The translations under genes were made by a program, and so were the position numbers. From Promethearchaeota archaeon (GTDB taxonomy: Archaea; Asgardarchaeota; Lokiarchaeia; Sigyniarchaeales; SOKP01): DNA of 31,134 bases. Below, in pieces: positions 1-25,643 of this stretch (position 1 is its first letter; each line of letters starts with the position of its first letter). Under the pieces are notes generated by a model. The model had not been told where the DNA came from. It saw only the letters and a list, made by a program, of their open reading frames with translations, and ran no database searches. The stretch covers positions 1 to 31,134 of the forward strand of contig JBHLNZ010000037.1 in assembly GCA_048941015.1 (NCBI GenBank). The letters run 5' to 3'.

Positions 1-2
1 TT

Positions 3-227
3 ATTTATTTGTTATTTCTATATGGAGGATATTTTGGGATGCATAAGAAAGCAGATTTCTCAGTAGCAAAAATGTTAGAAGAATTTAATTTTTCTTCTAA
101 TAGAGATTCTATTGATTTAGAAGATATTAACCGCAAATTCATGCATAAAGCATTACTCCATGGTTATACACCGAAAGAATATAAGAAATATTTAAATTCA
201 CTCTTATTTAGTAATGATCTTTATTAA
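3..227 (+). CDS. Hypothetical protein, 5'-truncated by the window edge; paralog of 12479..12865 (GGYFG...HKAxLxG family)
   Basis: The frame is open from position 3 (ATT TAT TTG...). IYLLFLYGGYFG...FMHKALLHGYTP aligns by eye with MYNMFSAFGGYFG...LLHKAFLYGIPP of ORF 12479..12865. Confidence 0.75.
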   Translation: MYLLFLYGGYFGMHKKADFSVAKMLEEFNFSSNRDSIDLEDINRKFMHKALLHGYTPKEYKKYLNSLLFSNDLY

Positions 228-266
228 TGTCTCTTTTTTATAAATCAAGAAAATTAAAAAAAAAAT

Positions 267-2135
267 TTATTTCTTTAATTTAGAACTCTTAATCTTCATG
301 AGAGAAATTATAGAGATTAATGCTATAAAGGCAATAAGAATCATTTGATATCCTGGAATAATACCTTCAGGACCCTGTGAAGTTTTCCAGCTTAATAGTT
401 GAAAATTTCCTTTTACTGAGCTTTTATCATATGCATCAATGTTTATAAAAGCATTATCTTCTATCCCTTCTAAATCTTCATGGAAAGCGATATAACCTAT
501 GGGAGAATATACAAAAGCCCATGGAAAATCACGTTCAATTATAAGTTGCTGTATTTTATTATAAAGTGTAATTCGCTCTTCATTATCAATACTACTTATT
601 GCTTGCTCCATTAAGAGTTGAACATCATTATCTTCGCTATAAGGAGTAAAACCACCATATCCACCATTATATTGAACTGAATTAAAGCTATATGTACTAT
701 TACTCAATAAAGCATTGATAAATTGAGAAGGATCGTTATAATCTGCAGCCCATGCGATAAAAAAGAGCTCGAGCATATCTCTAGTAAATCCATCCTTTTC
801 AAATAATTTGTATAAAAAGGTGACCCATGGTTCATCGTGAATCTCAACATTTATTCCTATTTTACTAAGATTATTCATCAAAAGATCCCCTATTTGTTCT
901 CGAAATGTACTTCCTGTATTATATGTATAATTTAATGTTCTGAAATTCGCTGATGTCCAATTAATCTCATGTAAACCTCCTGGAGTCACATCCCAACCTA
1001 TACCATAACCCATGCTTTGCATTATTTCTCTTGCTTTTGATAAATTATATATGGGAACATCAAAAGAATAATTACTAAAAAGCATACTTTTTGGGATTGG
1101 AGATTTTAATCTTTCAGCATGCCCTCCCCTAATATTATCAATTATATGAGAATAATCTATTGCATAGCATATAGCTTCTCTAAATGATTGGTCTATAAGA
1201 TGATTATTCATTCCCAAATAATGGAGTACCCACCCTCCTCTTTTCGATTCTATTAGTTGGAGATACTCCGCATTAGTAATATTCTCAAAATACAAAGGTG
1301 AAGGATTTATAAGCATATCGATTTCTTCATTAATCAGTGCTTGAGTTAGAGAGAGAGAATTTGAAATAATTTTGAGGGTTAAGTTCTGAATTTTTGAAGT
1401 AGTACGCCAATAGTTATCAAATGAATGAAAAGTTACATTAACATCATAATTATATTCATCATATACAAAAGGCCCACTACCAATTAAGTCTCCTGAAATT
1501 ACATCAATAAAGCTTGTAGCGGGTGTAGAAGCCGGTGATAATATATAGGATCCACTAAAGCAAAGTAAAGCTTCAAACCCACCAAATGGTCTGTTTAAAA
1601 CAAATCTAATGGTAAAAAGATCCAAAACTTCAGTTCTGTTAATAAAAGGTGTACCGTCGAGCCAACGATAAGCTGCATCGATAGTTGTAGGATTCCCTGG
1701 TCCAGGTAGAGTTCCGGACACATTCATAAAATAAGCTAATCTTTCAAAATTCCATTTTACAGCTGTTGCATTAAAAGGATTCCCGTCATGAAAGAGAATA
1801 TTTTCTCGAAGGGATAGGGTATAATTGAGTCCATTGTTAGTCCAAACACCAAAATCAAGAGCTAAACGAGGAATTATCTCCTTATCAGGCTTTGAATAGT
1901 CATAAGTGAAAAGTCCTTCGCAAACTTGTTCTATCACATTAAATGAACCCATATCCCACGCATCATGAGGATCTATAGCAACTGGTCCATAATGTACTCC
2001 AATCGTTAGTGAATCTTTTAAAGTTTCGCTGGTTTCATTACCTTTAACAAATGAATAGCAAGATATTGTGCTTTGTATACATAACAAAAGAATAAAGATC
2101 AATAAAACTCTATTATTAAATTTTTTTTTGATCAT
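267..2135 (-). CDS. ABC transporter substrate-binding protein, family 5 (OppA/DppA-like), with Loki-CTERM-like anchor
   Basis: N-terminal signal peptide; motifs DPH, EGLF, LRENILFHDGNPFNATAVKWNFER, GSGPF, WAADYNDP; C-terminal IPGY + TM + Lys-rich tail. No permease or ATPase adjacent. Confidence 0.93.
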   Translation of the reverse strand: MIKKKFNNRVLLIFILLLCIQSTISCYSFVKGNETSETLKDSLTIGVHYGPVAIDPHDAWDMGSFNVIEQVCEGLFTYDYSKPDKEIIPRLALDFGVWTNNGLNYTLSLRENILFHDGNPFNATAVKWNFERLAYFMNVSGTLPGPGNPTTIDAAYRWLDGTPFINRTEVLDLFTIRFVLNRPFGGFEALLCFSGSYILSPASTPATSFIDVISGDLIGSGPFVYDEYNYDVNVTFHSFDNYWRTTSKIQNLTLKIISNSLSLTQALINEEIDMLINPSPLYFENITNAEYLQLIESKRGGWVLHYLGMNNHLIDQSFREAICYAIDYSHIIDNIRGGHAERLKSPIPKSMLFSNYSFDVPIYNLSKAREIMQSMGYGIGWDVTPGGLHEINWTSANFRTLNYTYNTGSTFREQIGDLLMNNLSKIGINVEIHDEPWVTFLYKLFEKDGFTRDMLELFFIAWAADYNDPSQFINALLSNSTYSFNSVQYNGGYGGFTPYSEDNDVQLLMEQAISSIDNEERITLYNKIQQLIIERDFPWAFVYSPIGYIAFHEDLEGIEDNAFINIDAYDKSSVKGNFQLLSWKTSQGPEGIIPGYQMILIAFIALISIISLMKIKSSKLKK

Positions 2136-2251
2136 TTTTTATTTGATTTTTTGTCAATTGAAATTAAGACTAATTTAAATAGAATTATATTTATATCTTT
2201 TCTTCGATTAAATAAGATTTCTTACCGTTTATTCTTTTAACAGTTAGCTTG

Positions 2252-2267
2252 ATTTTTTCTTTAAATA
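2252..2267 (+). promoter_or_regulatory. T-rich-BRE/TATA element ATTTTTTCTTTAAATA upstream of the radA paralog
   Basis: Identical 16-mer at 10009..10024. It lies in a divergent intergenic region, 72 nt before the ATG. Confidence 0.55.
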
Positions 2268-2339
2268 TTACTATAAAATCAGAAGATCAATCTTAATTAT
2301 AATTAAAAGAGATGATAAGAAAAAATTTCAGATTTAGAT

Positions 2340-3551
2340 ATGGTAAAAAATATCAATGCCCGACAAATCAAACTTCTTCAGGAAAACGGAATTAGTACCG
2401 CGGAAGCATTAGCAATGTCTCCTGCAGCGATGGTTGCTGAAATCGATGGGTTAGGGGATAAAACTGCTAGGAAATTAATATGGAATGCTCGAAACGCCTT
2501 AGGAATGACTGAATTTATGGCAGTAAAAGATATAGACGAAAATACAGAATATATTACCACTGGCTCGGAGGAATTAAATCGAATCTTAGGAGGAGGAATA
2601 GCGACCGGTAAAATCACTGAAATTTTTGGTCCATTTAAATCAGGAAAAACGAATCTTGCACAAACTATAGCGGTAACATCTCAATTACCTAAAAGTAAGG
2701 GAGGTCTTGGCGCTTCAGTTGCCTATATCGACACTGAAAATACTTTTTCCAAAGATAAGATAAAGCGCATTGCAAAAAGATTTGGAATTGATGAGAAGAA
2801 AGCACTGTCTCAAATTTATCATGCTAGAATTTACTCTTCTGACCACCAATCCCAAATGATTGCCAAGGCAGAAGGTTTATGTAAAACTAGAGGAATAAGA
2901 TTAATAATTGTAGATAGTTTAATGGCTTTGATGAGAGCGGAATATGTAGGAATTGGTATGTTAGCCCGACGTCAAAGTGTGCTTAATAACATGATTCATG
3001 CTCTATCTCGAATAGCAGAAACTTATAATTGTGCAGTTTTGGTTACCAACCAAGTTGCTACTAAAATGGTCGGAATGTTTTCTGCGGATGATGCAATCGG
3101 AGGAAATATTGTTGCTCACGGTTGTCATTTTAGAGTTATGTTTAAGACTAAGGGTTTCTCATCTAATAATTCTTTAAAAAGGAGAGCTATAATTGTCGAT
3201 GCTCCTGATCTTCCGCCAAATGAATGTGAATTCTTCATTACAGCATCGGGAATTGCTGATACTGAACAATCAGAAATGCCAAAAAACGATGAAATCGATT
3301 TTAAAGTAGAGTCCTTATTTGAAGATTCTAATGCTGATTCTAAACCTAAAGAAACTTCTGAAGAAGTAGAAATAACGCAAGTGAAAGGAATTGGGAAAGG
3401 TATCGCAGATAATCTGAAGGAACATGGAATAAATTCTATTGAAGATTTGATTGATTCAAATGCTGAAGAATTAGCAACTAAAATAAGTGGAGTATCAACA
3501 AAAAAGATCATAGAATGGCAAGAACACGCAAAAGGGCTAATAACTAATTAA
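2340..3551 (+). CDS. radA: RadA/Rad51-family recombinase paralog with N-terminal HhH domain and an extra C-terminal HhH domain
   Basis: TTGSEELNRILGGG; Walker A GPFKSGKT; YIDTENTF; Walker B LIIVDS; RAEYVG..LARRQ; VTNQV; IGGNIVAH. The C-terminal VKGIGKGIADNLKEHGINSIEDL follows an acidic linker. Confidence 0.92.
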   Translation: MVKNINARQIKLLQENGISTAEALAMSPAAMVAEIDGLGDKTARKLIWNARNALGMTEFMAVKDIDENTEYITTGSEELNRILGGGIATGKITEIFGPFKSGKTNLAQTIAVTSQLPKSKGGLGASVAYIDTENTFSKDKIKRIAKRFGIDEKKALSQIYHARIYSSDHQSQMIAKAEGLCKTRGIRLIIVDSLMALMRAEYVGIGMLARRQSVLNNMIHALSRIAETYNCAVLVTNQVATKMVGMFSADDAIGGNIVAHGCHFRVMFKTKGFSSNNSLKRRAIIVDAPDLPPNECEFFITASGIADTEQSEMPKNDEIDFKVESLFEDSNADSKPKETSEEVEITQVKGIGKGIADNLKEHGINSIEDLIDSNAEELATKISGVSTKKIIEWQEHAKGLITN

Positions 3552-3640
3552 TTTTTTTTTCCTATTTTTCAACAGATTTTTTTAAATTTAAAGAAAGACT
3601 TTCTATAGGATTTTAAGGTAAAATTTAAGAAAAACAATCA

Positions 3641-4729
3641 TTATAACGTTGGGGGAGGTATAAAAACTCTTCTCATCTCTGTTTTTTTCAAACTGATAGC
3701 ACTTTCGGGGCATAAATGAGCACAAACACCACAGCCGATACATCGTTCATTATCAACAGCTGCAACAGTGTCTATGAGATCAACAGCTTCAGCGGCACAA
3801 TGCTGTACACACGTTCCACATCCAGTGCACAATTCTTCATCAACATGAGCTAAGTGTGAAGTTAAATCCATTAAAGGTATTCCACCGGTATAATGAAGGG
3901 TAAAAACGCCACAACAGCATTTGCAGCAATTACAAATACCATCAATATCTCTCTCTATATCTAAATTGGCGTGAAAAACCTTATGAACCAAGCCTTCATC
4001 TTCAGCTTTTTTCATTATTTGTTTAGCTTCATCCTTTGAAATTTTTTCTACAAAACCGTGGGATATAAGAAATTCGGCTGTTCTTCCCAAGGCAATACAA
4101 TTTCTCCTTTCATTTGTTGTTTCACATGGTTCATCAAGAAGATCTTTTTTGTGTCTGCAATAACAAACAGCCACTCCAATAGGATCGTACTTTTCAATGA
4201 TTTTTGAGACCTCTTCCAAGGGTAGAACAATCTCTTCCTTTAATTTAACTTCTTCTTCAACAGGAATGACCCTATCAATTGATGGGGCATCCTTCCATTC
4301 TTGAACCATTTGGTTATAATTTGTTTGAGTATCTTGAACAATCTGGTTATATAATTTCACAAATAAACTTGCTAAGTTTTTTGTTTCTTCGTTTGTCTCA
4401 CCACGCATTAAAGTAAATTCAATGATTCCTGGAACTAAGGGTGTTTTTCTGTAAACCATAACACCAGTACTTTTGCTGGGTATGCCAGAAATAACACCAA
4501 TATTCATTAGATCATTTAACATCTTATTAAGCTCTTCTTCATCCATATCAGTTAAAGGTTTAATTTGATCAAGATTATATGAATGTTTTTTGAGTAAAGT
4601 GATAAATTTAGCTTGTTCTTCAGTTAGTAAAGTTTGCATTATTTCAATTACTATTTCACTTGCTCGTATTGGTAACCTTCCCGCTTTTATAAAATTTCTA
4701 GCCACCTTATACCATAATTTTTCTGACAT
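3641..4729 (-). CDS. 4Fe-4S dicluster-binding protein with N-terminal wHTH-like region
   Basis: CYCRH, CNCCKCCC and two ferredoxin motifs, CTGCGTCVQHC and CIGCGVCAHLCP. Confidence 0.9.
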   Translation of the reverse strand: MSEKLWYKVARNFIKAGRLPIRASEIVIEIMQTLLTEEQAKFITLLKKHSYNLDQIKPLTDMDEEELNKMLNDLMNIGVISGIPSKSTGVMVYRKTPLVPGIIEFTLMRGETNEETKNLASLFVKLYNQIVQDTQTNYNQMVQEWKDAPSIDRVIPVEEEVKLKEEIVLPLEEVSKIIEKYDPIGVAVCYCRHKKDLLDEPCETTNERRNCIALGRTAEFLISHGFVEKISKDEAKQIMKKAEDEGLVHKVFHANLDIERDIDGICNCCKCCCGVFTLHYTGGIPLMDLTSHLAHVDEELCTGCGTCVQHCAAEAVDLIDTVAAVDNERCIGCGVCAHLCPESAISLKKTEMRRVFIPPPTL

Positions 4730-4862
4730 TTTTAATCAATTTTCAAATTTGGATATTTAATATTTTATTTGATATATGATATTTACTTTAATAGAATAAA
4801 AATATTTTAAAATTCTTTTTTTGCTAATTAAAAAAGAACAAAAAAATTTTATTTAATATCAA

Positions 4863-5831
4863 TCATACATTTTTCCGTTTCCTTGTCATTGTAAGCAGTA
4901 TCAAGGTTCCAATGAAAACACCAGCAATAATGACCATGCCTGTCATCATTTCCGAGGGAAGTGAAAAGAATTGGGTAAAATTCGTATCGTTATCCGAAGG
5001 AGAGCCGCTATTATTTGTTGGATCGGAAATTCGATAATCCCAGCAAATAGCATATCCAATGTTAACTGCATCAATATTGCAAGAAATTGTGATGTTTAAA
5101 ACATATACTCCTGACTTAGCAGTACCGAAATTAAAAAAAATTAATTCATTAATTGTAGGCAAAGTCGTATTAAAGTAAATTTTAAATTGGATATCATTAG
5201 GTTCATAGATAAAGTAATCTAAACTTACTTCGCTGTCATCTAAAACTGAGATGGAAGAGACTCTTCCAATGTAGCAGCGATATGATACATCGGTATCGAA
5301 ATTAATATAATAAGAGAATGATGTTTCATCAGAAAAACGAGCGATACGATAAAATACTTCTCTATTAAAGAGCTGAGAAGGAATTTTATCTGTAAGACAT
5401 TGCTCTCCTTTCTCTAATCGGATATAGATATTAAGATTATTTATGCTTATAACGTTAAATCTAATTGCATAGATACCTTGTAATGCAGTTCCAAAAGGAA
5501 TTTCATGCCAATCACCTTGAGTGAGAACCGCATGAAAGATGTTGTATCTCATCGTATCAGGATCCCATAAGCTAATATTCAAAGTGCAATTGTGGGGAGA
5601 TACCACTTCTATCCAAAAGTAATAAGTAAAATCTTTTTCCATAAATATTTCGGGAAAAACTAACTCATCTTCGGGACTCAAGAAGGTATATACTTTATCA
5701 ATTAGCGTGGGATTGTCAAACTCAAATAGAGAACCGTTGATAGTTGGTAATTTATAAAATGAGATCAACAGAGTCCCGAACAGAAGAACTATGATAAGAC
5801 TTATTATTGACTTCTTTATTTTAATAACCAT
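4863..5831 (-). CDS. Type I membrane surface protein with two tandem beta-sandwich (GOLD/PPC-like) repeats
   Basis: N-terminal hydrophobic signal; repeated DP/EP...FGTAxxGxY motif; S/D/N-rich linker; C-terminal TM + RKRKNV. Overlaps the upstream Zn-ribbon gene by 11 nt. Confidence 0.7.
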   Translation of the reverse strand: MVIKIKKSIISLIIVLLFGTLLISFYKLPTINGSLFEFDNPTLIDKVYTFLSPEDELVFPEIFMEKDFTYYFWIEVVSPHNCTLNISLWDPDTMRYNIFHAVLTQGDWHEIPFGTALQGIYAIRFNVISINNLNIYIRLEKGEQCLTDKIPSQLFNREVFYRIARFSDETSFSYYINFDTDVSYRCYIGRVSSISVLDDSEVSLDYFIYEPNDIQFKIYFNTTLPTINELIFFNFGTAKSGVYVLNITISCNIDAVNIGYAICWDYRISDPTNNSGSPSDNDTNFTQFFSLPSEMMTGMVIIAGVFIGTLILLTMTRKRKNV

Positions 5832-6138
5832 ACACCTTCATATTCTTAAACTCATTGGTAAGTTCCTGTACTAATTCGCATTTATCATATGCAATACAAC
5901 TAAAGCAAGGTTGATCTGACCAGAAATATGGTTTCTGGTGAGGTTTTTCTATAATAAGTAAAGGGAAGGATGTCTTAGGGCATGTAAGTGCTGAATTTAT
6001 GATTTTTCCCCTTTTAGGAAGTGGATATGATGTTTCACAAACATCACATTTTACAAATCTCTTGTAATTATTTGTTTTGTACACAATAAGCGAACATTCA
6101 CAATTGGGACAGATCCCAATCTCATCTATTTGTTTCAT
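5821..6138 (-). CDS. Stand-alone topoisomerase IA C-terminal-type Zn-ribbon protein
   Basis: GICPNCECSLIVYKTNNYKRFVKCDVCETSYPLPKRGKI...CP...PCFSC matches the pattern of archaeal TopA C-terminal Zn ribbons (CPxC...KRFVGC...YPLPxxGKI). Confidence 0.7.
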   Translation of the reverse strand: MKQIDEIGICPNCECSLIVYKTNNYKRFVKCDVCETSYPLPKRGKIINSALTCPKTSFPLLIIEKPHQKPYFWSDQPCFSCIAYDKCELVQELTNEFKNMKVYGY

Positions 6139-6187
6139 TTATCAGGACGCCTAATACTATAATTTTATAGTAAGTTTCTCTTGATCA

Positions 6188-6203
6188 TTTATAAAAAAAA
6201 AAA
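6188..6203 (-). promoter_or_regulatory. T-rich-BRE/TATA element (TTTTTTTTTTTATAAA) for the Zn-ribbon/surface-protein operon
   Basis: Reverse complement of tttataaaaaaaaaaa; 49 nt before the ATG at 6138; divergent intergenic region. Confidence 0.5.
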
Positions 6204-6307
6204 TAAAATTCTCTTGCATTTATTGAAAAATTAATAAATGGGGTATGGGTTTCAATTTAATAGACCTTAAATTTTATAGATCAAGACTCCTATAAACTAT
6301 AATTTTT

Positions 6308-6346
6308 AAGAGAGGAGAGAAGAGTTAACTTCTAACCTCTCTTTTT
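6308..6346 (+). other. Imperfect inverted repeat (hairpin) followed by a T-run in a divergent intergenic region
   Basis: AAGAGAGG(6308-6315)/CCTCTCTT(6336-6343) and AGAAG(6318-6322)/CTTCT(6329-6333), 6-nt loop, then TTT. Confidence 0.6.
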
Positions 6347-6360
6347 GATTAATCTAGTTA

Positions 6361-6376
6361 ATTTTTTGTTTATAAA
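6361..6376 (+). promoter_or_regulatory. T-rich-BRE/TATA element ATTTTTTGTTTATAAA (leaderless-type spacing)
   Basis: 24 nt before ATG 6401. Confidence 0.6.
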
Positions 6377-6400
6377 TATCTATTTTATTCTAAATCCATT

Positions 6401-6625
6401 ATGGCAATTTTTAGTTATTTATCCAGTATGGTGAGTGCTGTCGAATTTCTTATAGCTTTAGGATCAGTTATTGGATTATTAGGTTTGCTTGTGGGATTAA
6501 TATTTCTCATCTGGGGTTCTCCAAGAATGCGTGGTAAAATGGTTGGAGTGATTATTATTTCGATTATATTATTAGCATTATGTGGAGTTAATACAGGGAT
6601 GAAATATTTTAGAGTTTATAGATAA
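6401..6625 (+). CDS. Small two-TM membrane protein, possibly VirB2/TrbC/CedA1-type pilin-like
   Basis: 74 aa; two hydrophobic helices separated by a short basic loop (GSPRMRGK). The pilin call rests on architecture only. Confidence 0.55.
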   Translation: MAIFSYLSSMVSAVEFLIALGSVIGLLGLLVGLIFLIWGSPRMRGKMVGVIIISIILLALCGVNTGMKYFRVYR

Positions 6626-6726
6626 ACAATATTTTTAGTAAAACATGCGCCATAAAACAAATTTTAACTGTTAATAAGATTATTAGAACTATTTTAAATC
6701 AAGATTTCTTTTATTTTAGTACTTGT

Positions 6727-7092
6727 TTAAATATATCCTTTTGAAGGCTTATTCCCTCCAAGGATCATTCCCATAAAATCATAAGTTATATCAGTAAGAA
6801 AACATCCAATCCATAGCAAAAGTACTCCAAAAAAAATTGCACCAATTGAAATTTTTTTTGAGATTAATACTTTGATTATTGCGTAAGCGATTAAAAGTGG
6901 ACCAAAAGTAAGACAGATTGTCCCAATATAATTAAACACTAACTTGAGCACAATATTTGTCTGATAACGCAAATTTGCTCCAAAGAACGGTACATAAATA
7001 GCTATAAATAGCAAAATTCCAGTAAAAATCCACATAACTTTACTATGACTCCTTTCTTTTCCGATTACTATAACATTTTCATTTTTTGCCAT
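6727..7092 (-). CDS. Three-TM hypothetical membrane protein
   Basis: 121 aa with three hydrophobic segments. Confidence 0.75.
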   Translation of the reverse strand: MAKNENVIVIGKERSHSKVMWIFTGILLFIAIYVPFFGANLRYQTNIVLKLVFNYIGTICLTFGPLLIAYAIIKVLISKKISIGAIFFGVLLLWIGCFLTDITYDFMGMILGGNKPSKGYI

Positions 7093-7135
7093 AATTAATT
7101 ACTTTTTTCAATTTAGTATGTTAAATTTCCGTCTC

Positions 7136-7171
7136 TTTATAAAAAAAAAATACTCATTTTTTCTTTAAAAA
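7136..7171. promoter_or_regulatory. Back-to-back pair of T-rich-BRE/TATA elements (7136..7151 on minus; 7156..7171 on plus)
   Basis: Minus: ATTTTTTTTTTATAAA, 43 nt before ATG 7092. Plus: ATTTTTTCTTTAAAAA, 21 nt before ATG 7193 and identical to 12442..12457. Confidence 0.65.
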
Positions 7172-7192
7172 TTTATATCCTTCACAAGAGTT

Positions 7193-8284
7193 ATGGGAGT
7201 TAAACTTCAAAACATTATAATTAGAAAAAAAATCGAATTTTCAGATTTAAGGGGGAAAATTATTACTGTTGATGCTCCAAACATCATAATGGGTTTATTT
7301 AACTTCGCACGAAGAGACATTGGACAGAATAGTAAAGGTTTAATTTTAGATAAAACACAACGTCCAATTTCTCATCTCTACGGGTTATTTTATAGAATAA
7401 ACTTTTATTATTCGAAGATGATAATTCCTATTTTTGTGTTTGATGGTGTTGATTCTGAGTTAAAAAAACTCAAAACGAAAGACAGGCTTCACGATTTTCT
7501 TTTTACTCAGATTTGGTATCAAGAGGCTATAAGATCAGGGAATAATCAATTAGCACGAAGTATTGCTTTAAGTAAAGAATATATGTGGAGAAATATTATT
7601 TCCGAATCAAAAGCACTTCTTGGGGCATTAGGTGTACCATATATTGAATCTCCCGCTTCAGCAGAATCCCAATGCGCCTATTTAGTAAGAGATAAAATAG
7701 CTAATTATTCTAATTCCCAGGATTTTGACTCGCTACTTTTTGGTTGCCCTAGATTGCTCCAAAATCTTTCTAAATCATTAAAAAGAAAAATAAAAGGACG
7801 TTGGACCTATTATAAAATCGATCCTTTAACAATAAATCTTAAAAAAAACTTAGAACTGCTTAATATTAATCAGTTTCAGTTAGTTGATATAGCTATACTA
7901 ATAGGAACAGATTATTTTCCAGGAATCAAAGGTATAGGGTCTAAAACTGCCTTAAAACTGATATTAAAACATCATTCCTTAGAAAATATATTGTATCAGG
8001 AGAAAAATAAATACAATTTTGAAGAATTAACTCCTGATCTCATAAAAGAAGTACGAAAAATCTTTCTACTTCCCGAAGTAATCAGAAAATATAGTGAAAT
8101 CTTTTGGAATCATCCAAATGAAGCCTTAGTATACCATTTATTATGTGAAGAACATAATCTTAACCGAGAACGTATTAAGAATAATATGGATAAGTTTATA
8201 AATAATTATGAACGATGCGTACAATATTTTAAATTTAAAAAGGATAAACCAACTCTTTTACAAAAATCATTATTATCGTTTTAA
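7193..8284 (+). CDS. fen: Flap endonuclease-1 (FEN1/XPG family) paralog with C-terminal PIP box
   Basis: MGVKL, VDAPN, PIFVFDG, AESQCA, SQDFDSLLFG, GTDYFPGIKGIGSKTA (H3TH); C-terminal QKSLLSF PCNA-interaction motif. Confidence 0.92.
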   Translation: MGVKLQNIIIRKKIEFSDLRGKIITVDAPNIIMGLFNFARRDIGQNSKGLILDKTQRPISHLYGLFYRINFYYSKMIIPIFVFDGVDSELKKLKTKDRLHDFLFTQIWYQEAIRSGNNQLARSIALSKEYMWRNIISESKALLGALGVPYIESPASAESQCAYLVRDKIANYSNSQDFDSLLFGCPRLLQNLSKSLKRKIKGRWTYYKIDPLTINLKKNLELLNINQFQLVDIAILIGTDYFPGIKGIGSKTALKLILKHHSLENILYQEKNKYNFEELTPDLIKEVRKIFLLPEVIRKYSEIFWNHPNEALVYHLLCEEHNLNRERIKNNMDKFINNYERCVQYFKFKKDKPTLLQKSLLSF

Positions 8285-8295
8285 GTAATTACTAG

Positions 8296-8311
8296 AATTT
8301 TCTTTTAAATA
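8296..8311 (+). promoter_or_regulatory. Degenerate T-rich-BRE/TATA element AATTTTCTTTTAAATA
   Basis: 54 nt before ATG 8366. It could also be the fen terminator T-tract. Confidence 0.35.
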
Positions 8312-8365
8312 TTTCAAGTTTATTCCCAAAACAATTCTTATTTATAATATTAAGATGACAATAAA

Positions 8366-8968
8366 ATGGCAGATAATTCAAATATACATTCTGAGGAGTA
8401 TATGATTCCATTTCTTATTGAACAAGAATTTACTACCAAATACAACGTACTTAATTATGTAGTACGACATATGTCTTTTGTAAATCATCAGGAAAAAATT
8501 GTTACTATACCTCAAGAAAAATTAAGAATGGTATCAAAAAATACTCATATTCCTAATTGCATAGTTAATAAAGTTGTAAGAGGCTTTTTGATAAACGTGC
8601 TTCTTTTTCGAGATCATATGAGTGCTTATAAATTTTCGTGGAGTCATGGAGTCAAAGTTCAATTAAGTAAAGTTTGTGTATATTTAGAACGTCTATATAA
8701 TATGGCACCGGTATTTGATTTTACAAGGGCAAAGAAAAATTTAGAGATATTATATAAACTTCTTGAACTAAATTGTTATTGGCCTTGTCTGACTACACAA
8801 CTCGCTTTAGTTATATTTGTGACAGATCGAAACGATTCACAAAATTATGAGTTTATTACTCAGAAAAATTTGCGAGCGATTTGTGCTAATTCCGCGTATG
8901 CGTTTCATAGAGCACGAAATAAATTAGGGATTAATAATAATGGACGGATAAGTCGATTAATACAGTAA
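8366..8968 (+). CDS. Hypothetical protein with a C-terminal TFB/TFIIB cyclin-repeat-like domain
   Basis: VYLERL...AKKNLEIL...QLALVIFV...ITQKNLRAICANSAYAFHRARNKL parallels the TFB second repeat (YVPRF...AIEIL...AAAAIYIA...[24 protein letters not shown]). No N-terminal Zn ribbon. Confidence 0.5.
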   Translation: MADNSNIHSEEYMIPFLIEQEFTTKYNVLNYVVRHMSFVNHQEKIVTIPQEKLRMVSKNTHIPNCIVNKVVRGFLINVLLFRDHMSAYKFSWSHGVKVQLSKVCVYLERLYNMAPVFDFTRAKKNLEILYKLLELNCYWPCLTTQLALVIFVTDRNDSQNYEFITQKNLRAICANSAYAFHRARNKLGINNNGRISRLIQ

Positions 8969-9018
8969 ACTTCTCATTTAAAACGCATATAATTACATCT
9001 TTAATTTTAATTGGCGAG

Positions 9019-9034
9019 ATTTTTTATTTATAAA
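9019..9034 (+). promoter_or_regulatory. T-rich-BRE/TATA element ATTTTTTATTTATAAA (leaderless-type spacing)
   Basis: 23 nt before ATG 9058. Confidence 0.6.
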
Positions 9035-9057
9035 AAAGTGCAAAATAGTTTTATTTA

Positions 9058-9990
9058 ATGATTACTGATTTAGATGATATTTTCCAAAAATTATTAGAAA
9101 AAGGGCTAACTGAAGAGGAAATTGAACGCCAAATACACAAAAAATCTCGGCAGTATGATGGGTTCATGTCGAAACAGGGAATTCTCTTTATTATTGCCAA
9201 AGAAAACGGTATTAAGCTCTATTCTCCCGAAATTGACCCTGAAATCTACAAAGAAATCGAAAAAGAGATTGATTATGATGAGTTCACCATCTCTATCTCC
9301 AATGTACAAGAAGGGATGCAAAATATTGTTATCTTAGGTAAAATAATATCCATTTTTCAGAAGCGTGAATTTGTAAGAAAAGATGGATCAGTAGGGCAGG
9401 TTGGCTCATTTATCGTAGCTGATACATCTGGAACAATTAAAGTAGTGATATGGGATGATAAAGTTGAAATGATGAATAATGAATATTTTAAAGAAGGAGA
9501 AATCATCCGAATTATTGGCGGATATTCTAAGATGGGAGAAGACAATTCGCTTGAAGTTCACCTCAGGCGAAATGGAAATCTCCATATCTCTCCAAATGAT
9601 ATAACCCAAAAATTAAGAATTCAATTGGAATCGGTCAGATGTTCTGAAAATTACCATCTTAATTTAAAAAAAGGGGTAGCAAAAAATATTCATGATTTGG
9701 TAGATAAATATGAATTTATTAGGAGTATTCAGGGTATTGTAAAAATAGAAGATTTTAAAGAATTGACTACTAAAAGTGGAGAAAAGACATTTCTTCTTAA
9801 ATTGATATTAAGCGATGATTCTGCGTCCGTTTATGTAGTAGTATGGGGGATGATTGCGATTGAATGTCTGAAATTAATAAATGAGGGAGATTCAGTCTGT
9901 ATTACTAACTTAAAGGTACAGAGAAATACGTTTAATAATGAAAAAGAGCTAATATTTACTAAGAAATCTTCTTTGCAGATTATAGGTTAG
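9058..9990 (+). CDS. Replication protein A-like ssDNA-binding protein (two OB folds, helical N-terminal domain)
   Basis: ISNVQEGMQNIVILGKI...EFVRKDGSVGQV...ADTSGTIKVVIWD and a second OB, LSDDSASVYVVVWG. Confidence 0.88.
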   Translation: MITDLDDIFQKLLEKGLTEEEIERQIHKKSRQYDGFMSKQGILFIIAKENGIKLYSPEIDPEIYKEIEKEIDYDEFTISISNVQEGMQNIVILGKIISIFQKREFVRKDGSVGQVGSFIVADTSGTIKVVIWDDKVEMMNNEYFKEGEIIRIIGGYSKMGEDNSLEVHLRRNGNLHISPNDITQKLRIQLESVRCSENYHLNLKKGVAKNIHDLVDKYEFIRSIQGIVKIEDFKELTTKSGEKTFLLKLILSDDSASVYVVVWGMIAIECLKLINEGDSVCITNLKVQRNTFNNEKELIFTKKSSLQIIG

Positions 9991-10008
9991 CCATATAAGT
10001 TAATATAA

Positions 10009-10024
10009 ATTTTTTCTTTAAATA
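10009..10024 (+). promoter_or_regulatory. T-rich-BRE/TATA element ATTTTTTCTTTAAATA for the roadblock/MglA-like operon
   Basis: Identical to 2252..2267; 48 nt before ATG 10073. Confidence 0.55.
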
Positions 10025-10072
10025 GTCCTAGTAAATTAGCATTCTAATCATTATAAAAGGTTAATACTTAAC

Positions 10073-10606
10073 ATGACAATATATGTGCCAAAAGCATTGT
10101 ATGAAAATGAGATTTCAGAAGTGCTAGATGAAATCCGACATTCTTACGGAATTCTTACTAGAAAAGGATTTATCTACGGGTTAATTGCGATTGATCAAGA
10201 TGCTAAAATTATCGCCATAGACTCTCGTTTTGACCGAAAGTTAAATTATTGGGATTTAAGTTCTATCGGAGCTGCGATGTATGGAGTGGCACGCCAAGCT
10301 CAAGATTTTTTTGACACTCAATCCTTAATACGTGCTACTTTAATTTTTAAAGACTTACAGTTATTTGTAAAATCAATAGGGCAAGTTAATCTAAAGCGAA
10401 AAGGAGATCGAGAAATTTTGGTAATACTTCTAGTGAATAATGAAGTCAATATAGGAGTTCTTATACTCCAGATGAATAAGTTTTCCGAAAAAATTAGAGA
10501 AGCAATAAAACGCAACAACGAAATTATGTCCAAGTTAGAAATGACTGAAACAGAATTAAAAGAACATATTAAAAATCTCAAGAGAAAAGTATTTGGATCT
10601 GCTTAA
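10073..10606 (+). CDS. Roadblock/LC7 (MglB-like) domain protein with C-terminal helical extension
   Basis: Pattern GLIAIDQDAKII...LSSIGAAMYG...LVILLVNNEVNIGVL; directly upstream of an MglA-like GTPase. Confidence 0.75.
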   Translation: MTIYVPKALYENEISEVLDEIRHSYGILTRKGFIYGLIAIDQDAKIIAIDSRFDRKLNYWDLSSIGAAMYGVARQAQDFFDTQSLIRATLIFKDLQLFVKSIGQVNLKRKGDREILVILLVNNEVNIGVLILQMNKFSEKIREAIKRNNEIMSKLEMTETELKEHIKNLKRKVFGSA

Positions 10607-10624
10607 TTTTAGGTGATTCATAAA

Positions 10625-11284
10625 ATGGCAGAATCAAATAGAAAAGGAGAGAGTTGCCCGTCTTTAAGTAGTAAATCTAATCAAGGTAAAATGAAAGGAG
10701 TGCTTCAATTTAAGATTGTATATTGGGGTCCCGGTGAATCGGGGAAGACTACGAATTACTTTCGGCTTAGGGAGAAATTTGATGGAGTAAAATTGAATGC
10801 AGGATACTCTATTGAAACTACAGATGGCCGCACTTTATGGCAAGATTCAGTTCGGCTTTCATTTTTTCTTAATCTCGGAGATATTAAGTATAATATCATT
10901 TCTCAAATAGTAACGGCAACGGGACAAGAACGTTTTTTATCTACCAGAGAATATGTTTTGGATGGAGCGGATGGAGTGGTTTTTGTTGCTGACTCGGATC
11001 CTGAAAAGATGGAACAAAACAAACGCAGCTTTCGAGAATTGATTAGTTTTACAAAACCTAATAAGATTCCTTATTTGGTGCAGTTAAACAAACGAGATTT
11101 AAAAAACGCCATCTCTATTGAAGAATTTAAAAAACAGTTAAATCTCCCTGATTTTGAAGAATATGAAGATGGAACCCTTGTAGTCTATTCTTCGGTAGCT
11201 TTGAAGGGCGAGAATATACGAGAATGTTTTGAAGATCTTATGCTTCATGTAATTTTTAATTATTTTAAGAAGGATTTCATTTAA
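10625..11284 (+). CDS. MglA-like small GTPase (likely start ATG 10625 after AGGTGA; the ORF track starts at 10613)
   Basis: KIVYWGPGESGKTTN (G1), TTDGRTL (G2 with the MglA-type Arg), TATGQ (G3), DGVVFVADS, NKRD (G4). Confidence 0.88.
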   Translation: MAESNRKGESCPSLSSKSNQGKMKGVLQFKIVYWGPGESGKTTNYFRLREKFDGVKLNAGYSIETTDGRTLWQDSVRLSFFLNLGDIKYNIISQIVTATGQERFLSTREYVLDGADGVVFVADSDPEKMEQNKRSFRELISFTKPNKIPYLVQLNKRDLKNAISIEEFKKQLNLPDFEEYEDGTLVVYSSVALKGENIRECFEDLMLHVIFNYFKKDFI

Positions 11285-11315
11285 TACATATTTTCTTATA
11301 AGTTTAGATAATTTA

Positions 11316-12434
11316 ATGGGGCTGTTAGATTTGGATACAGAATATGACTTTATTCAGCCGGAATTTTTAAACATTCTTTTTTTTCAGCAAATGAATTTAA
11401 TCATATTTCCTTATATAGATTTGAAACATCTTCATTCCTTACAGATTTTTACTATTGGATATGATATCATTGATATCGATGCTACAGCAATCCATAACTT
11501 ACAGGAAATTGTTGATTATGAAAAATGCAGTTCTTATTCTCAGCAACCTACCCTTTACTTTTTATATAATGTTGATGTATTAAATCTAAAAAAACTAATT
11601 ACTTCCAATAATGTTCGCTACATTGTAAACATTAATGAAGATGTGGATAATTTAGTAAATGACTCTGATGCCATATTTTTTAACAAAAAAAGCAAGAAGT
11701 TTATCAATTATACTCCTGATAATCTAGAATTTGAAACTTATCTTATTGAAAACTCCAATAGCGAAACTGTTCTTCTGGAAAAAATTCAGCAGATTAAAAC
11801 ATTAGCGACTAAAATATATTCCGAAATAAACGAAAAAGGACATCTAAAGGAATTATCTACTATTTTAAAAGAATATGATCCGTGTTATTGGAATAAGATC
11901 TTATCATTTACTAAAAAATATTATGATATTGAACTCCCTGAGGTTAGTATTCCAGAATCAGGTAAAAAAATTGCCCATAAGAAGGAATTGAAGGATTTTT
12001 CTGCAGAATATGAATTGATTATAAAAAGCAATCGACATATTGCTCAAGAATTTGTTCAATTAATTCATGAATATCGTAGTAAATATGTAAATTCTGCTAA
12101 CTTAGAAGTTGATCAATTATATTATCCTCTAAAACTCTATAATTATCTGCGAAACCACCACTGGAAAAAGGGTATTCATTCCAGCTTTTTGAAAGAATGG
12201 CTTAAAATGAAGCATACTAGTTATGTGCTTAATGAAAATGACAAAGCTGATTTTAAAACTCTTCTTCAGAAGTTAAATAGTAATAATATTGATTTCGAAA
12301 AAATACAAGCTCAACCAAATTCGGAAAATAGTCAATTGCTTAATATTAACAGCAAAAATCCAATACCTTCTATTAAAGATTTCCAAGAATTTAAAAAATG
12401 GATATTGAAGAAATTAGATCACCTTGCAAAATAA
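11316..12434 (+). CDS. Hypothetical protein; the N-terminus weakly resembles a degenerate AAA+/clamp-loader-like fold
   Basis: Long 372-aa ORF. GYDIIDIDAT / PTLYFLYNVD / RYIVNIN are spaced like RFC motifs, but there is no Walker A. Confidence 0.6.
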   Translation: MGLLDLDTEYDFIQPEFLNILFFQQMNLIIFPYIDLKHLHSLQIFTIGYDIIDIDATAIHNLQEIVDYEKCSSYSQQPTLYFLYNVDVLNLKKLITSNNVRYIVNINEDVDNLVNDSDAIFFNKKSKKFINYTPDNLEFETYLIENSNSETVLLEKIQQIKTLATKIYSEINEKGHLKELSTILKEYDPCYWNKILSFTKKYYDIELPEVSIPESGKKIAHKKELKDFSAEYELIIKSNRHIAQEFVQLIHEYRSKYVNSANLEVDQLYYPLKLYNYLRNHHWKKGIHSSFLKEWLKMKHTSYVLNENDKADFKTLLQKLNSNNIDFEKIQAQPNSENSQLLNINSKNPIPSIKDFQEFKKWILKKLDHLAK

Positions 12435-12441
12435 ATTGTAT

Positions 12442-12457
12442 ATTTTTTCTTTAAAAA
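12442..12457 (+). promoter_or_regulatory. T-rich-BRE/TATA element ATTTTTTCTTTAAAAA (leaderless-type spacing)
   Basis: Identical to 7156..7171; 21 nt before ATG 12479. Confidence 0.6.
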
Positions 12458-12478
12458 TACCTGAATAATAAGATAACC

Positions 12479-12865
12479 ATGATTTCAAAACAAGTAATGG
12501 ATAGGAAAGGAAAGGTACCTGAAATTCGATGTATTATATGTAATAATGAGACAAAACAAAAACCTCAAATTATCCAGTTAGGTGTAGAATTTTGCATCAT
12601 ATGTCCAGAATGTATCAAAAGGTTTCCCCGAAAGGATATGGAATTCATGTATAATATGTTTTCAGCATTTGGTGGGTATTTCGGACAAGTTAAAGATACC
12701 AAAAGGTCAATGTATGAGATTTTCAAACATTTGACTAAAGAATTTAATATCCAAGAAGAAAGAATTACTCTTAAAAGTGATATTCGCCTACTGCATAAAG
12801 CATTCTTATATGGAATCCCTCCCAGTCAAATATTACAAGGATATCATTTAGTACAAAAGGTTTAA
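12479..12865 (+). CDS. C4 zinc-finger protein with GGYFG...HKAFLYG helical domain
   Basis: CIIC...CPEC; the C-terminal part is homologous to ORF 3..227. Confidence 0.75.
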   Translation: MISKQVMDRKGKVPEIRCIICNNETKQKPQIIQLGVEFCIICPECIKRFPRKDMEFMYNMFSAFGGYFGQVKDTKRSMYEIFKHLTKEFNIQEERITLKSDIRLLHKAFLYGIPPSQILQGYHLVQKV

Positions 12866-12909
12866 TATTTTTAGGAGTTTAAATGGATTGATTAAGATTA
12901 AGGGGTATA

Positions 12910-13122
12910 ATGAATGTTATACAACATAGTTATTGCCCCCGTTGTCAAACTTATTTAGTATATACAACCGAGAACAAGATTTTATGTCCCTCCTGCCGAC
13001 TTACGTTTAATAAAGATGTATTCGGTGCATTAAATGACGAGAATATTCTTTCGGATCAGGAAATTAGCGGGATACTTGATTCTTTAAAAAAAGGAAGAAA
13101 TATACAAAAACTAAAAATTTAA
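12910..13122 (+). CDS. Small Zn-ribbon protein (TFB N-terminal Zn-ribbon-like)
   Basis: CPRCQTYLVYTTENKILCPSCRLTF; GGGGT ribosome-binding-like sequence just upstream. Confidence 0.65.
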   Translation: MNVIQHSYCPRCQTYLVYTTENKILCPSCRLTFNKDVFGALNDENILSDQEISGILDSLKKGRNIQKLKI

Positions 13123-13202
13123 TTATATTCTTTCTCTTCTTTTTTAGATCTTCACATCATTTATAATAGTTTAATTAAACTATATTATTTTATATTATAA
13201 AA

Positions 13203-13952
13203 TTAGAAATGGACATTATGTTTTTCTAAAATCCAAGTATCTATAGAAAATTCTTGAATTCCCTTTTTTTCTATTTTATAATCAGAATGAATTGTTGATC
13301 GAGGTAGCCATAACTCAAGATTATTTTCAAACATAATTAGTAATGCTTTATCAGAACTTCCCATAATACTTCCTTTGATTTGTATTGATTTTTTATTAAT
13401 AGCTTTCTTTTTATCTGATTTTTCAACAACTTGTTTAATTTTTTGGTGTTTTTCTGGTACTTCAATAATCTCTTCCCTAATCATCAAATTGTCAGAATTT
13501 TCCTCTTTCAAAATTTTACTGTTTTCACCATCAGGAGGTCTAAAATTGGAGCCAGTTGCATATTCAATCTTTTCAGCTAGCATATGCTCCATCAACATTC
13601 GAAAAATAATAATTTGAGCCGTTTGAAATGATTTCTTATAATCCCCAATATTAACATAGATTTGCTCTTTTTTGCTATCATCCCATTTGAAGTTAATTGC
13701 AGTTTTATCTTCCTTAAAGGAATGATAAGTTGTCCATGAGTCCGATTCTTTAGACAAAACTTGAAGAATTAATGCCATCTCTTCTAAGGAAAACTTAATT
13801 GTTTTCCCCTCCCCTTGAGATGGTTTTTCCCATACTCCATCTTTTTTTTTTCGTAAACAGGTAAAAAAGATAAAATCATCCTGTTTGGAAGAACTTTTGA
13901 TTATAATACCGGTTTTTTGTCCGAAAAAGCTTCTAGAGTGAAAATCTACCAT
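13203..13952 (-). CDS. Putative Whirly/PC4-fold ssDNA-binding protein with a C-terminal small beta-barrel domain
   Basis: N-terminal beta-beta-beta-beta-alpha pattern (FIFFTCLRKKKDGVWEKPSQGEGKTIKFSLEEMALIL) apparently repeated; charged linker; C-terminal SDKALLI...LWLPRSTI...IDTWILEK domain. Confidence 0.5.
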   Translation of the reverse strand: MVDFHSRSFFGQKTGIIIKSSSKQDDFIFFTCLRKKKDGVWEKPSQGEGKTIKFSLEEMALILQVLSKESDSWTTYHSFKEDKTAINFKWDDSKKEQIYVNIGDYKKSFQTAQIIIFRMLMEHMLAEKIEYATGSNFRPPDGENSKILKEENSDNLMIREEIIEVPEKHQKIKQVVEKSDKKKAINKKSIQIKGSIMGSSDKALLIMFENNLELWLPRSTIHSDYKIEKKGIQEFSIDTWILEKHNVHF

Positions 13953-13999
13953 AATAATATCAAATGATCTTTAATTTTAAAATAAAGAGAGGCTAGTTA

Positions 14000-14015
14000 T
14001 TTATAAATAAAAATA
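14000..14015 (-). promoter_or_regulatory. T-rich-BRE/TATA element TATTTTTATTTATAAA
   Basis: 47 nt before ATG 13952; divergent intergenic region. Confidence 0.5.
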
Positions 14016-24225: not shown

Positions 24226-25299
24226 TTATAATAGTTTTGAGGATTTCTTTAGTTTCATTCTTATAAGGATTACGGCAACTGATAGAATTCCAATCAGCAT
24301 GAATAAATTAAATCCGGGAATTCTTCCACCATTTTGAGTGGTTGGGATTGGGCAAATCATTAATGGAAAATTATCTTGACTTCCTGCGGGACCAGCAATA
24401 TTATAGGGAATGTCTCCGACTCCATTATTGTCTGAATCTGAACCTGTATAATCATCCCAATAGTTGCCTATTGTTCCATTATCCCATTTATTATTTAAAG
24501 CACCATCATTAGCATGGACTCCATTATCCGTAAAACAATTAAGATATACCTCATTATTTCCGGAAGGGCCTCCCTTAAATTCTATGCCAAGAGTATTTTT
24601 ACTTATGATATTTCTCGTAATATTGTTATATCGAACAAACGACCATGTTTGTATCCCAATTTGATTGGAAATTAAGGTGTTTCCCGTAATATTGTTATTT
24701 TCAGCACCCCCTACATGTAAAACTATTCCCGTTAAATAATTATATTCAATACTATTTCCCGAAATGGTGTTATTATCACCATCATTTAAAAGTATCCCGC
24801 AATAGTCGTTATGGTCTACGATGTTTCCCGAGATCGTGTTATTATGACTGGCATACAAGCTTATTCCGCTATAATTAGGAGAACAAACATTATCAGTTAC
24901 CTGTCCATTATTCGTGTTGTTAAGTTTAATACCTGCTGCAGGATAATCTCCCGAGTTGTAGAGGTTACATTTTTCAATCCTAAAGTACACGGTGGAATTT
25001 TCAATCAAGATACAGCTTCCCGATCCCCCTCCATCTATTTCCAAATCTTCTATAATATAAGGTTCGGAATAAGTACCATTTCCAGTACATATTCCCGCAT
25101 CTTTAGCAACAGACCAATTCATAGTTGGATTAGTATCATCGATGTGAATTGGTGATACAGCTGAGATTTTCAAATTTCCATTATCTGAACAAAATTCTGA
25201 ATTATTTAAGCTGAGATTAATGCTAATTATTGATGAAAAAGCAAAAAAAATTCCTAAAATTATTAGAACAACTATTTTTATTTTTCGATTTGATTTCAT
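24226..25299 (-). CDS. Secreted right-handed parallel beta-helix (NosD/CASH) protein with Loki-CTERM-like anchor
   Basis: GNGTYSEPYIIEDLEID, repeated NNTISGN, GNYWDDY...GDIPY, IPGF + TM + Lys tail. Confidence 0.9.
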   Translation of the reverse strand: MKSNRKIKIVVLIILGIFFAFSSIISINLSLNNSEFCSDNGNLKISAVSPIHIDDTNPTMNWSVAKDAGICTGNGTYSEPYIIEDLEIDGGGSGSCILIENSTVYFRIEKCNLYNSGDYPAAGIKLNNTNNGQVTDNVCSPNYSGISLYASHNNTISGNIVDHNDYCGILLNDGDNNTISGNSIEYNYLTGIVLHVGGAENNNITGNTLISNQIGIQTWSFVRYNNITRNIISKNTLGIEFKGGPSGNNEVYLNCFTDNGVHANDGALNNKWDNGTIGNYWDDYTGSDSDNNGVGDIPYNIAGPAGSQDNFPLMICPIPTTQNGGRIPGFNLFMLIGILSVAVILIRMKLKKSSKLL

Positions 25300-25360
25300 T
25301 TTGAGTTCATCAGAATCTTATTTCGTTATATATATAAAAAGATGTTTGTAAAATTTATTT
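25277..25360. repeat. Repeat A copy 1 (84 bp: start of nosD-like gene plus 5' leader)
   Basis: Matches 27449..27532 with one mismatch. Confidence 0.9.
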
Positions 25361-25472
25361 AAATATTTTTTATCGTTCAACTAGCAAAAATAAGTTTTTA
25401 CTAGTAAAAATGTATTTTTGACTGTGAATTTTTCACTTTATTTTTTAGTTAAAAAAAATAAAAAGAAGTATT
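25355..25472. repeat. Repeat B copy 1 (118 bp promoter/upstream region)
   Basis: Matches 28686..28803 with three mismatches. Confidence 0.9.
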
Positions 25473-25643
25473 CTTCTTCCTCATTAAGCGCATCTACAGC
25501 CCCCATTGGAATCACTCCTCCTATAGTAGATAGCCATTAAAAAAACGAAATAAAATTAGGTTTATGAAGAATCTAGGAGTAATATAAAAGTATTACATTC
25601 AAAAAATTTAAGAAAAAAAAAATTGAATTATTTTATGAATTAC

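Follow-up and report, generated by a model that had tools for sequence, protein, structure and literature searches.

A contig of 31,134 nucleotides (nt) from the Promethearchaeota archaeon assembly GCA_048941015.1 (JBHLNZ010000037.1), hereafter the window, carries one arm of a gene island that is probably a co-regulated, dispensable second toolkit for recombination and repair in Loki-type Asgard archaea (Promethearchaeota). The arm occupies positions 1-13952 of the window and encodes divergent paralogs of RadA, FEN1 and RPA, a stand-alone Zn ribbon and a Whirly-fold protein, and several of its genes share a rare T-tract promoter motif. At least 11 species of the genus have both the gene order and the motif in common, with inserts that vary at two slots. 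A literature search on an Asgard T-rich promoter class and on an island-borne TFB, Whirly protein or RadA neighbourhood turned up only a RadA phylogeny paper (PMC12722695). No published account of the island or of its promoter class was found.

A divergent set of recombination proteins

The first-pass annotation of this DNA, made from its letters and translations, had named paralogs of RadA, FEN1 and an RPA-like protein, a TopA-type Zn ribbon and a Whirly/PC4-like protein, and family and fold searches agree with each of these assignments. The genes are as follows.

2340-3551 (+): RadA-a, a full-length RadA paralog in which an N-terminal helix-hairpin-helix (HhH) domain and ATPase core are joined by an acidic linker to an additional (HhH)2 domain at the C terminus
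5821-6138 (-): stand-alone topoisomerase-I-type Zn ribbon, 105 amino acids (aa), matching PRK07220 positions 588-663 (E 3.3e-10)
7193-8284 (+): FEN1 paralog with XPG_N and XPG_I nuclease domains
9058-9990 (+): short RPA paralog with an N-terminal helical domain and two OB folds (Pfam OB families)
13203-13952 (-): predicted Whirly-fold protein of the single-stranded DNA/RNA-binding type, 249 aa, with an extra C-terminal beta domain, at the right end of the island

RadA-a is recognized by the Pfam Rad51 model (235.6 bits) and has Walker A (GPFKSGKT) and Walker B (LIIVD) motifs, as well as an FxxA-type polymerization motif (F-M-A-V, compared with F-M-R-A in Pyrococcus furiosus RadA). From residue 11 onwards it aligns with residues 49-349 of P. 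furiosus RadA, indicating that the N-terminal HhH domain is present, and a second HhH domain (HHH_5) occupies residues 344-398. Its divergence is plain from the scores: against P. furiosus RadA it reaches 212 bits, whereas the canonical RadA of a congener reaches 337 bits, and among the NCBIfam models it passes NF003301 (313 bits, cut-off 259) and falls below TIGR02236 (282.7 bits, cut-off 361). Congeners usually have two canonical RadA copies of ~332 and ~415 aa, which are ~65% identical to each other and ~40% identical to RadA-a.

In a quick maximum-likelihood tree, RadA-a proteins from three families grouped as a single clade on a long stem (100% support) and were separate from the order's canonical RadA; the sister group was the RadA of Jord- and Odinarchaea, with weak support. 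The eukaryotic Rad51 clade (99% support; Rad51 of fungi, a nematode and foraminifera) excluded RadA-a, and the proposal that the island bears on the origin of Rad51/Dmc1 specialization is not borne out by this grouping. The tree agrees with the published phylogeny, in which a second RadA clade is found in Heimdall-, Njord-, Gerd- and, less robustly, Lokiarchaea, and the Rad51/Dmc1 branch lies outside all of the RadA clades reported there (PMC12722695).

No copy of canonical radA was found in this assembly, either with Pfam or in tblastn searches that used the two canonical types of congeners as queries. We considered loss of the gene and rejected it, as the neighbourhoods of both canonical copies are missing as well. 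One copy in the nearest relative (G037) sits in a region of ~8 kb and 7 genes that has no counterpart here, and the next conserved gene starts at base 1 of contig C26; the other copy lies on a 7.4-kb contig of G037 beside a gene for a 1649-aa protein that is also missing here. Gaps in assembly or binning are thus the most likely cause. The suggestion that the island holds second copies accordingly stands for fen and rpa, whose canonical copies are on contigs C3 and C101, and for radA has been shown in relatives only.

The FEN1 paralog scored 191 bits against archaeal FEN-1 (residues 1-335), compared with 312 bits for the canonical FEN of the same genome on C3, and its 286.7 bits against the NCBIfam fen_arch model lie below the cut-off of 351.95. 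In all nine orthologs inspected, the first Glu of the SEGE active-site motif is replaced by Ser (PASAESQ), and the other six acidic residues are kept. The C-terminal tail, where a PCNA-interacting (PIP) box of the form Qxx[LIM]xx[FY][FY] is expected, has the degenerate PIP-like sequence QKSLLSF in the window; orthologs have QETLDSIF or QKTLDQYS, and the canonical copy has QVSLDSFF. The short RPA protein is assigned as a paralog because its NCBIfam 'replication factor A' score (91.7 bits) is far below the equivalog cut-offs; the canonical RPA on C101 has 571 aa and is 29% identical to it. Taken with the RadA-a scores, these values uphold the view that the recombination genes are divergent paralogs.

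For the 249-aa protein, the AlphaFold model is confident over residues 1-130 (predicted local distance difference test (pLDDT) score >87), and Foldseek returned WHY1, StWhy2, MRP1/2 and Pur-alpha (E 3e-5 to 2e-3, probability 1.0, target-normalized TM score 0.5-0.6). The modelled fold is thus predicted to be the beta-beta-beta-beta-alpha repeat of the Whirly/Pur-alpha (PC4-like) type. The Whirly-fold family occurs at 2-6 copies per genome in 100 of the 101 genomes searched in the family, and one copy per genome is linked to the island; further copies lie at G000:C10:10738-11460 and C45:30487-31200.

The 105-aa Zn ribbon is 60-70% identical in relatives. The tail of RadA-a (residues 331-397) matches the archaeal topoisomerase I model PRK07220 at positions 674-739, directly after the segment matched by the Zn ribbon, and the C-terminal region of archaeal topoisomerase I looks as if it had been divided between the two proteins. 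Two other RadA forms were seen. In three congeners (G008 twice, G015 and G017), RadA-a is split near residue 256 into adjacent open reading frames (ORFs) of ~290 and ~150 aa, separated by a ~28-nt gap with a stop codon (L025:7407-8649, L026:7443-8685, L028:7054-8296 and L029:7382-8603); given how well both parts are conserved, the split may represent either a pseudogene common to these congeners or a protein in two pieces. At G000:C38:37497-38642 (L017), a 382-aa RadA-like protein has a winged helix-turn-helix (wHTH)-like N terminus in place of the HhH domain, a core interrupted by an insertion and a Walker A motif that is degenerate (ADYRVGKS), and no counterpart of it was seen in the two nearest congeners searched.

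A putative T-tract promoter class

The 13-mer TTTTTTCTTTAAA occurs 24 times in the 3.59-Mb genome, counting both strands, and emerged as the top repeat family in an unguided repeat search. Four copies are in the window (2253, 7157, 10010 and 12443), at 74, 23, 50 and 23 nt upstream of the RadA-a, FEN, Roadblock-like and 128-aa protein genes, respectively, and four more are on contig C43, which holds the second arm of the island. The full elements in the window are these.

2252-2267 (+): T-tract promoter element (T6-C-TTTAAATA) upstream of RadA-a
7156-7171 (+): T-tract promoter element 23 nt before the FEN start codon
10009-10024 (+): T-tract promoter element upstream of the Roadblock-like/GTPase operon
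12442-12457 (+): T-tract promoter element 23 nt before the start codon of the 128-aa protein gene

The consensus aTTTTTTCTTTAAATAt consists of the TATA box TTTAAATA with T6-C directly upstream, at the position of the TFB-recognition element (BRE). In a crude gene call, the strict motif preceded 8 of 35 island genes and 5 of 3098 others, an enrichment of ~180-fold. With up to one mismatch it was found upstream of 49 of 100 orthologous island genes, compared with 14 of 174 neighbouring genes, across 14 loci; the most faithful families were the 128-aa protein (12/12, always at -23) and a 74-aa membrane protein (10/11), followed by the Zn ribbon (6/8), RPA (4/6) and a 200-aa protein (4/7). The spacing between motif and ATG is 23-26 nt in several families, which is consistent with leaderless transcripts. 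An upstream motif shared by genes on both strands, as first proposed, is therefore real, rare genome-wide and conserved upstream of orthologs, with the qualification that the minus-strand units of the window carry variants of the T-tract and TATA box.

No A-rich, BRE-type promoter was found in the island, and no preference for T or C ahead of TATA-like octamers was found genome-wide. The T6-C-TTTAAA register is fixed also in divergent intergenic regions, where termination is unneeded. A few genes outside the island have the motif, among them those for DHDPS and cytidylate kinase. The strict motif is absent from two closed genomes that belong to another family. Of the 20 and 13 sites that a related form, TTTYGNTTTTAWAWA, has in these genomes, 5 and 3, respectively, fall within the 15-18-kb island, a clustering that is suggestive only, because the pattern was chosen after viewing those regions.

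Two observations bear on promoters nearby. At G000:C43:8669-8765 (L009), two copies of the T-tract motif point apart within a single 97-nt intergenic region, and one of them abuts the annotated ATG of a gene for a Hel308-like helicase, whose real start codon therefore probably lies downstream of the annotated one. Outside the island, at 24226-28610 of the window, three paralogous genes for surface proteins of the NosD/beta-helix type have near-identical A-rich promoters (AAAAAATATTTAAATAA), opposite in flavour to those of the island.

Extent and conservation of the island

The window is the whole of one contig (C88) of an assembly with 144 contigs, 95% completeness and a G+C content of ~30%. 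The interval first singled out, 2252-14015, contains 15 ORFs; the gene content proposed for it stands in nearly every item and the extent does not, as the block is a single arm of a larger island. In G037 (RadA-a 84% identical), contig G037:C49 runs uninterrupted from the GTPase gene through RadA-a and four genes, x1-x4, into the genes found here on C43, and the island is therefore at least 38 kb long and interrupted here by an assembly gap. Genes x1-x4, which lie between the two arms in relatives and of which x1 is RadB-like, were not found in this assembly. The left end of the contig falls inside the island, because it cuts a second gene copy for the 128-aa protein.

3-227 (+): 5'-cut remnant of a second 128-aa Zn-finger gene (tblastn match to the 128-aa paralog found ahead of RadA at 12 related loci)

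Between this remnant and RadA-a lies an SBP_bac_5 solute-binding-protein gene (267-2135, minus strand), at a place where relatives have no gene. The right flank beyond the Whirly gene (Na/Ca exchanger, SIR2, PIG-L and MFS) is syntenic with G037, and the base composition of the island block is like that of the remainder of the contig.

The C43 arm adds a Hef-type helicase without its nuclease and the divergent Hel308-like helicase, both of which have other copies of their type elsewhere in the genome, as well as a protein with a CoiA nuclease domain (Pfam 50.5 bits, cut-off 20.3), a stand-alone HhH protein resembling the RadA N terminus and a paralog of the 70-aa Zn ribbon of the window. In G015, the gene for the CoiA-nuclease-domain protein adjoins that for the RPA paralog.

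Synteny across relatives was examined at two depths. Within the genus, the order is 128-aa paralog / RadA / membrane protein / Zn ribbon / 74 aa / 121 aa / FEN / 200 aa / RPA / Roadblock / GTPase / 372 aa / Whirly. Beyond the genus, in families f2 and f4 of the order, RadA-a, the FEN paralog, Whirly, the Zn ribbon, Roadblock and GTPase and the Hel308-like helicase remain linked in rearranged order; the genomes concerned include two closed, single-contig chromosomes (4.32 and 6.04 Mb), each with the island in single copy. Among 18 congeners, RadA-a and the FEN paralog were both present in 10, both absent from 6 (two of them 98% complete) and found singly in 2, in both cases at contig ends. Between families, RadA-a is 51-64% identical and canonical RadA 47-66%; because the two diverge in parallel, an old chromosomal paralog with repeated loss fits.

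Candidate factors for the T-tract promoters

8366-8968 (+): 200-aa, all-helical protein with a cyclin fold at residues 93-198 and no Zn ribbon

This protein, a member of a family of at least 234 uncharacterized proteins of ~200 aa, is our leading candidate for a dedicated initiation factor on the basis of its predicted structure. The model (pLDDT 82) has an N-terminal half of three helices, there is no CxxC pair, and the nearest structural neighbours of the cyclin fold are TFIIB (Z score 8.2), Brf (7.9) and P. woesei TFB (7.0), ahead of cyclins (6.9 or less). Foldseek also placed TFIIB and Brf2 at the top, without significance (E 0.4 or more). Pfam TFIIB and PDB profile searches detected no likeness to TFB in its sequence, and homology by sequence was rejected after hhalign comparisons with the genome's own TFBs (profiles of 7 and 32 sequences) gave probabilities below 1%. 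Of the earlier label 'TFB-repeat-like', then, the cyclin fold closest to TFIIB/Brf/TFB remains, and the sequence profiles and the missing Zn ribbon do not support it; the proposed analogy to TFB3 of Sulfolobales goes no further than the same fold-level resemblance. The genome has seven full-length TFB genes detectable by Pfam, all off the island contigs and none beside motif clusters. The 128-aa Zn-finger protein is a second candidate reader of the T-tract promoters.

Weighing the alternatives

Several points weigh against a co-regulated second toolkit. The strict motif precedes only 4 of ~11 transcription units in the window, the others having looser T-tract/TATA forms, and in five congeners the number of exact 15-mer matches does not follow the presence of the island. 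Runs of T also serve archaea as termination signals. No relation of the 200-aa protein to TFB is seen in its sequence, and a Z score of ~8 is within the range of common helical arrangements. With no canonical radA in the assembly, RadA-a could here be the working recombinase. The points on oligo-T and on motif counts, together with the few non-island genes that carry the motif, would equally suit a set of ordinary, constitutively expressed neighbours, in which the T-tract is a lineage-specific flavour of strong promoter or a terminator-promoter composite and no dedicated factor exists. We regard this as very unlikely given the fixed register in divergent intergenic regions that need no terminator, the ~180-fold enrichment on the island, the conservation of the motif upstream of orthologs and the lack of any T or C preference ahead of TATA-like octamers genome-wide. 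A remnant or domesticated plasmid or virus that brought in a module for recombination-dependent replication is, in our judgement, similarly improbable. The patchiness of the island among congeners, its variable cargo slots and the occurrence of three island copies in one metagenome-assembled genome would fit such an origin, as would the combination of recombinase, single-stranded DNA-binding protein (SSB), FEN and helicases, which resembles phage T4-type modules; a PHROGs scan of the window gave one generic UvsX-like match, to RadA, and one family without known function. However, no integrase, transposase, capsid, terminase, replication initiator, other phage structural gene, tRNA, terminal repeat or att site was found in the window (the C43 arm was scanned in part), the base composition is that of the contig, the right flank is syntenic between two species, and the divergence between families parallels that of canonical RadA. 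The genome with three copies has 9% contamination, and the block sits as a single copy inside closed, single-contig chromosomes of relatives, in keeping with the first-pass view that it is chromosomal and free of integrase and viral genes.

A programme for DNA uptake or cell-to-cell DNA exchange, similar to competence, would be a special case of the second toolkit, in which the membrane proteins and GTPase import DNA and the spare enzymes integrate it. We hold this to be doubtful. In its favour, membrane proteins are among the members most faithful to the motif (the 74-aa protein gene above all), the Roadblock/GTPase pair is linked to RadA-a in three families, and the CoiA-nuclease-domain protein belongs to the C43 arm and neighbours the RPA paralog in G015; a second, dedicated SSB is typical of bacterial competence. 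Nevertheless, Pfam and NCBIfam searches of the window and the scanned C43 genes recognized no pilin, pilus ATPase, prepilin peptidase, secretin or FtsK/HerA-type translocase, nor any other pilus or DNA-import gene (no search with a specific CedA/B model was made), and the 'pilin-like' label given to one protein could not be verified. Several large island proteins have no assigned function.

A co-regulated second recombination toolkit remains the reading we favour, and the recombination programme is probably switched separately. In the working model, a dedicated initiation factor, rather than the general TFB, would read the T-tract promoters, and the whole toolkit would consequently be switched on together, in response to a trigger that may be DNA damage, incoming DNA, or a signal from the cell cycle or from cell contact. 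The short RPA and the Whirly protein would coat single-stranded DNA, RadA-a would build a strand-exchange filament, the helicases would remodel intermediates, and the FEN paralog may trim flaps, probably on PCNA. A bolder version, which we consider unlikely as a whole, sees a second kit for genome maintenance that is optional and has a core-promoter class to itself, read in the manner of a sigma factor by an island-encoded cyclin protein that resembles a TFB core without a Zn ribbon; RadA-a, as a specialized recombinase, and its helpers would recombine foreign or sister DNA, and the kit would be a functional forerunner of separately regulated recombination in the lineage nearest to eukaryotes.

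Relation to known systems

The closest archaeal parallel is the TFB3-dependent DNA-damage response of Sulfolobales (Ups pili, Ced importer and homologous recombination), where, as proposed here, an atypical TFB-family protein is considered to activate genes for exchange and recombination as one set. TFB3 has a Zn ribbon and no cyclin core, and it works at ordinary promoters with TFB1. The island differs in that the promoter class itself is altered and the candidate factor is of the cyclin type without a Zn ribbon, and in its cargo of paralogous recombination enzymes, among which no Ups or Ced genes were recognized in scans that included no specific CedA/B search. The multiple TFB and TBP paralogs of haloarchaea, which in the fashion of alternative sigma factors direct gene subsets through variant basal factors and core-promoter differences, are similar in principle; unlike the island's candidate, they are full-length TFBs, and the seven such TFBs of this genome are off the island contigs. 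To our knowledge, a T-tract BRE class confined to a single island has not been described.

Like archaeal RadB and aRadC/Ral, and like the second Asgard RadA clade (PMC12722695), RadA-a is an extra RecA-family protein beside canonical RadA; RadB and aRadC lack the N-terminal HhH domain, whereas RadA-a is full length and gains a second HhH domain. No description of its gene neighbourhood, promoter class or accessory distribution was found in that paper or elsewhere. Bacterial competence regulons (ComK/ComX, with SsbB, DprA, CoiA and RecA) also combine a switchable set, a second SSB and a CoiA-type nuclease with a recombinase, but they belong to another domain of life and have other regulators; the island in addition duplicates the recombinase, flap nuclease and helicases, and no uptake machinery was identified on it. 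Phage T4-type recombination-dependent replication (UvsX, gp32, RNase H/FEN and helicases) brings the same functions together in one block, whereas the island is chromosomal and without viral hallmark genes, and its RadA, RPA and FEN1 are proteins of the archaeal/eukaryotic type that branch among Asgard sequences.

Many Loki-type Asgard archaea thus have an optional, complete second set of recombination enzymes. The promoter type of the island departs from the ordinary archaeal one exactly where the general TFB reads DNA and, should a dedicated factor indeed read these promoters, archaea would offer a clear example of a regulon set by its core promoters, much like the regulons of alternative sigma factors. 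Two closed genomes of the order hold the core genes. For biochemists, the island offers a natural RadA variant with what its sequence predicts to be an extra DNA-binding domain, and a FEN1 with a conserved change in the active site.

Other genes of the window arm

The remaining genes encode predicted membrane proteins, a GTPase with its putative partner, small Zn-finger proteins and cargo.

3641-4729 (-): protein with a wHTH domain and two [4Fe-4S] clusters, variable cargo in an insertion slot, outside the conserved set
4863-5831 (-): 322-aa protein with N- and C-terminal hydrophobic segments, a conserved island member in an operon with the 105-aa Zn ribbon
6401-6625 (+): 74-aa predicted membrane protein
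6727-7092 (-): 121-aa predicted membrane protein
10073-10606 (+): 177-aa protein, possibly Roadblock/LC7 (MglB)-like (a lead from language-model features)
10613-11284 (+): small GTPase of the Arf/Ras family, 6 nt downstream of the Roadblock-like gene (Pfam Arf 49 bits, Ras 26 bits)
11316-12434 (+): 372-aa conserved protein with no recognized fold
12479-12865 (+): 128-aa protein with a CxxC...CxxC Zn finger and a conserved helical C terminus, two copies per island
12910-13122 (+): 70-aa Zn-ribbon protein with a paralog on C43

The membrane proteins announced by the first-pass annotation correspond to three small or bitopic ones, all predicted, and its small Zn-finger proteins to the last two genes listed. 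Of the MglB/MglA-like switch it had suggested, the small GTPase is secure; the 177-aa partner has no Pfam match and resembles Robl_LC7 clusters in Atlas language-model features only (0.90). Atlas matches of the 372-aa protein were discarded as meaningless, the model having a pLDDT of 0.43.

The family of the wHTH and [4Fe-4S] protein has at least 10 paralogs in this genome. In other species, the slot that it occupies, between RadA-a and the membrane-protein gene, holds other cargo, for example flavodoxin-ferredoxin or NosD-like proteins.

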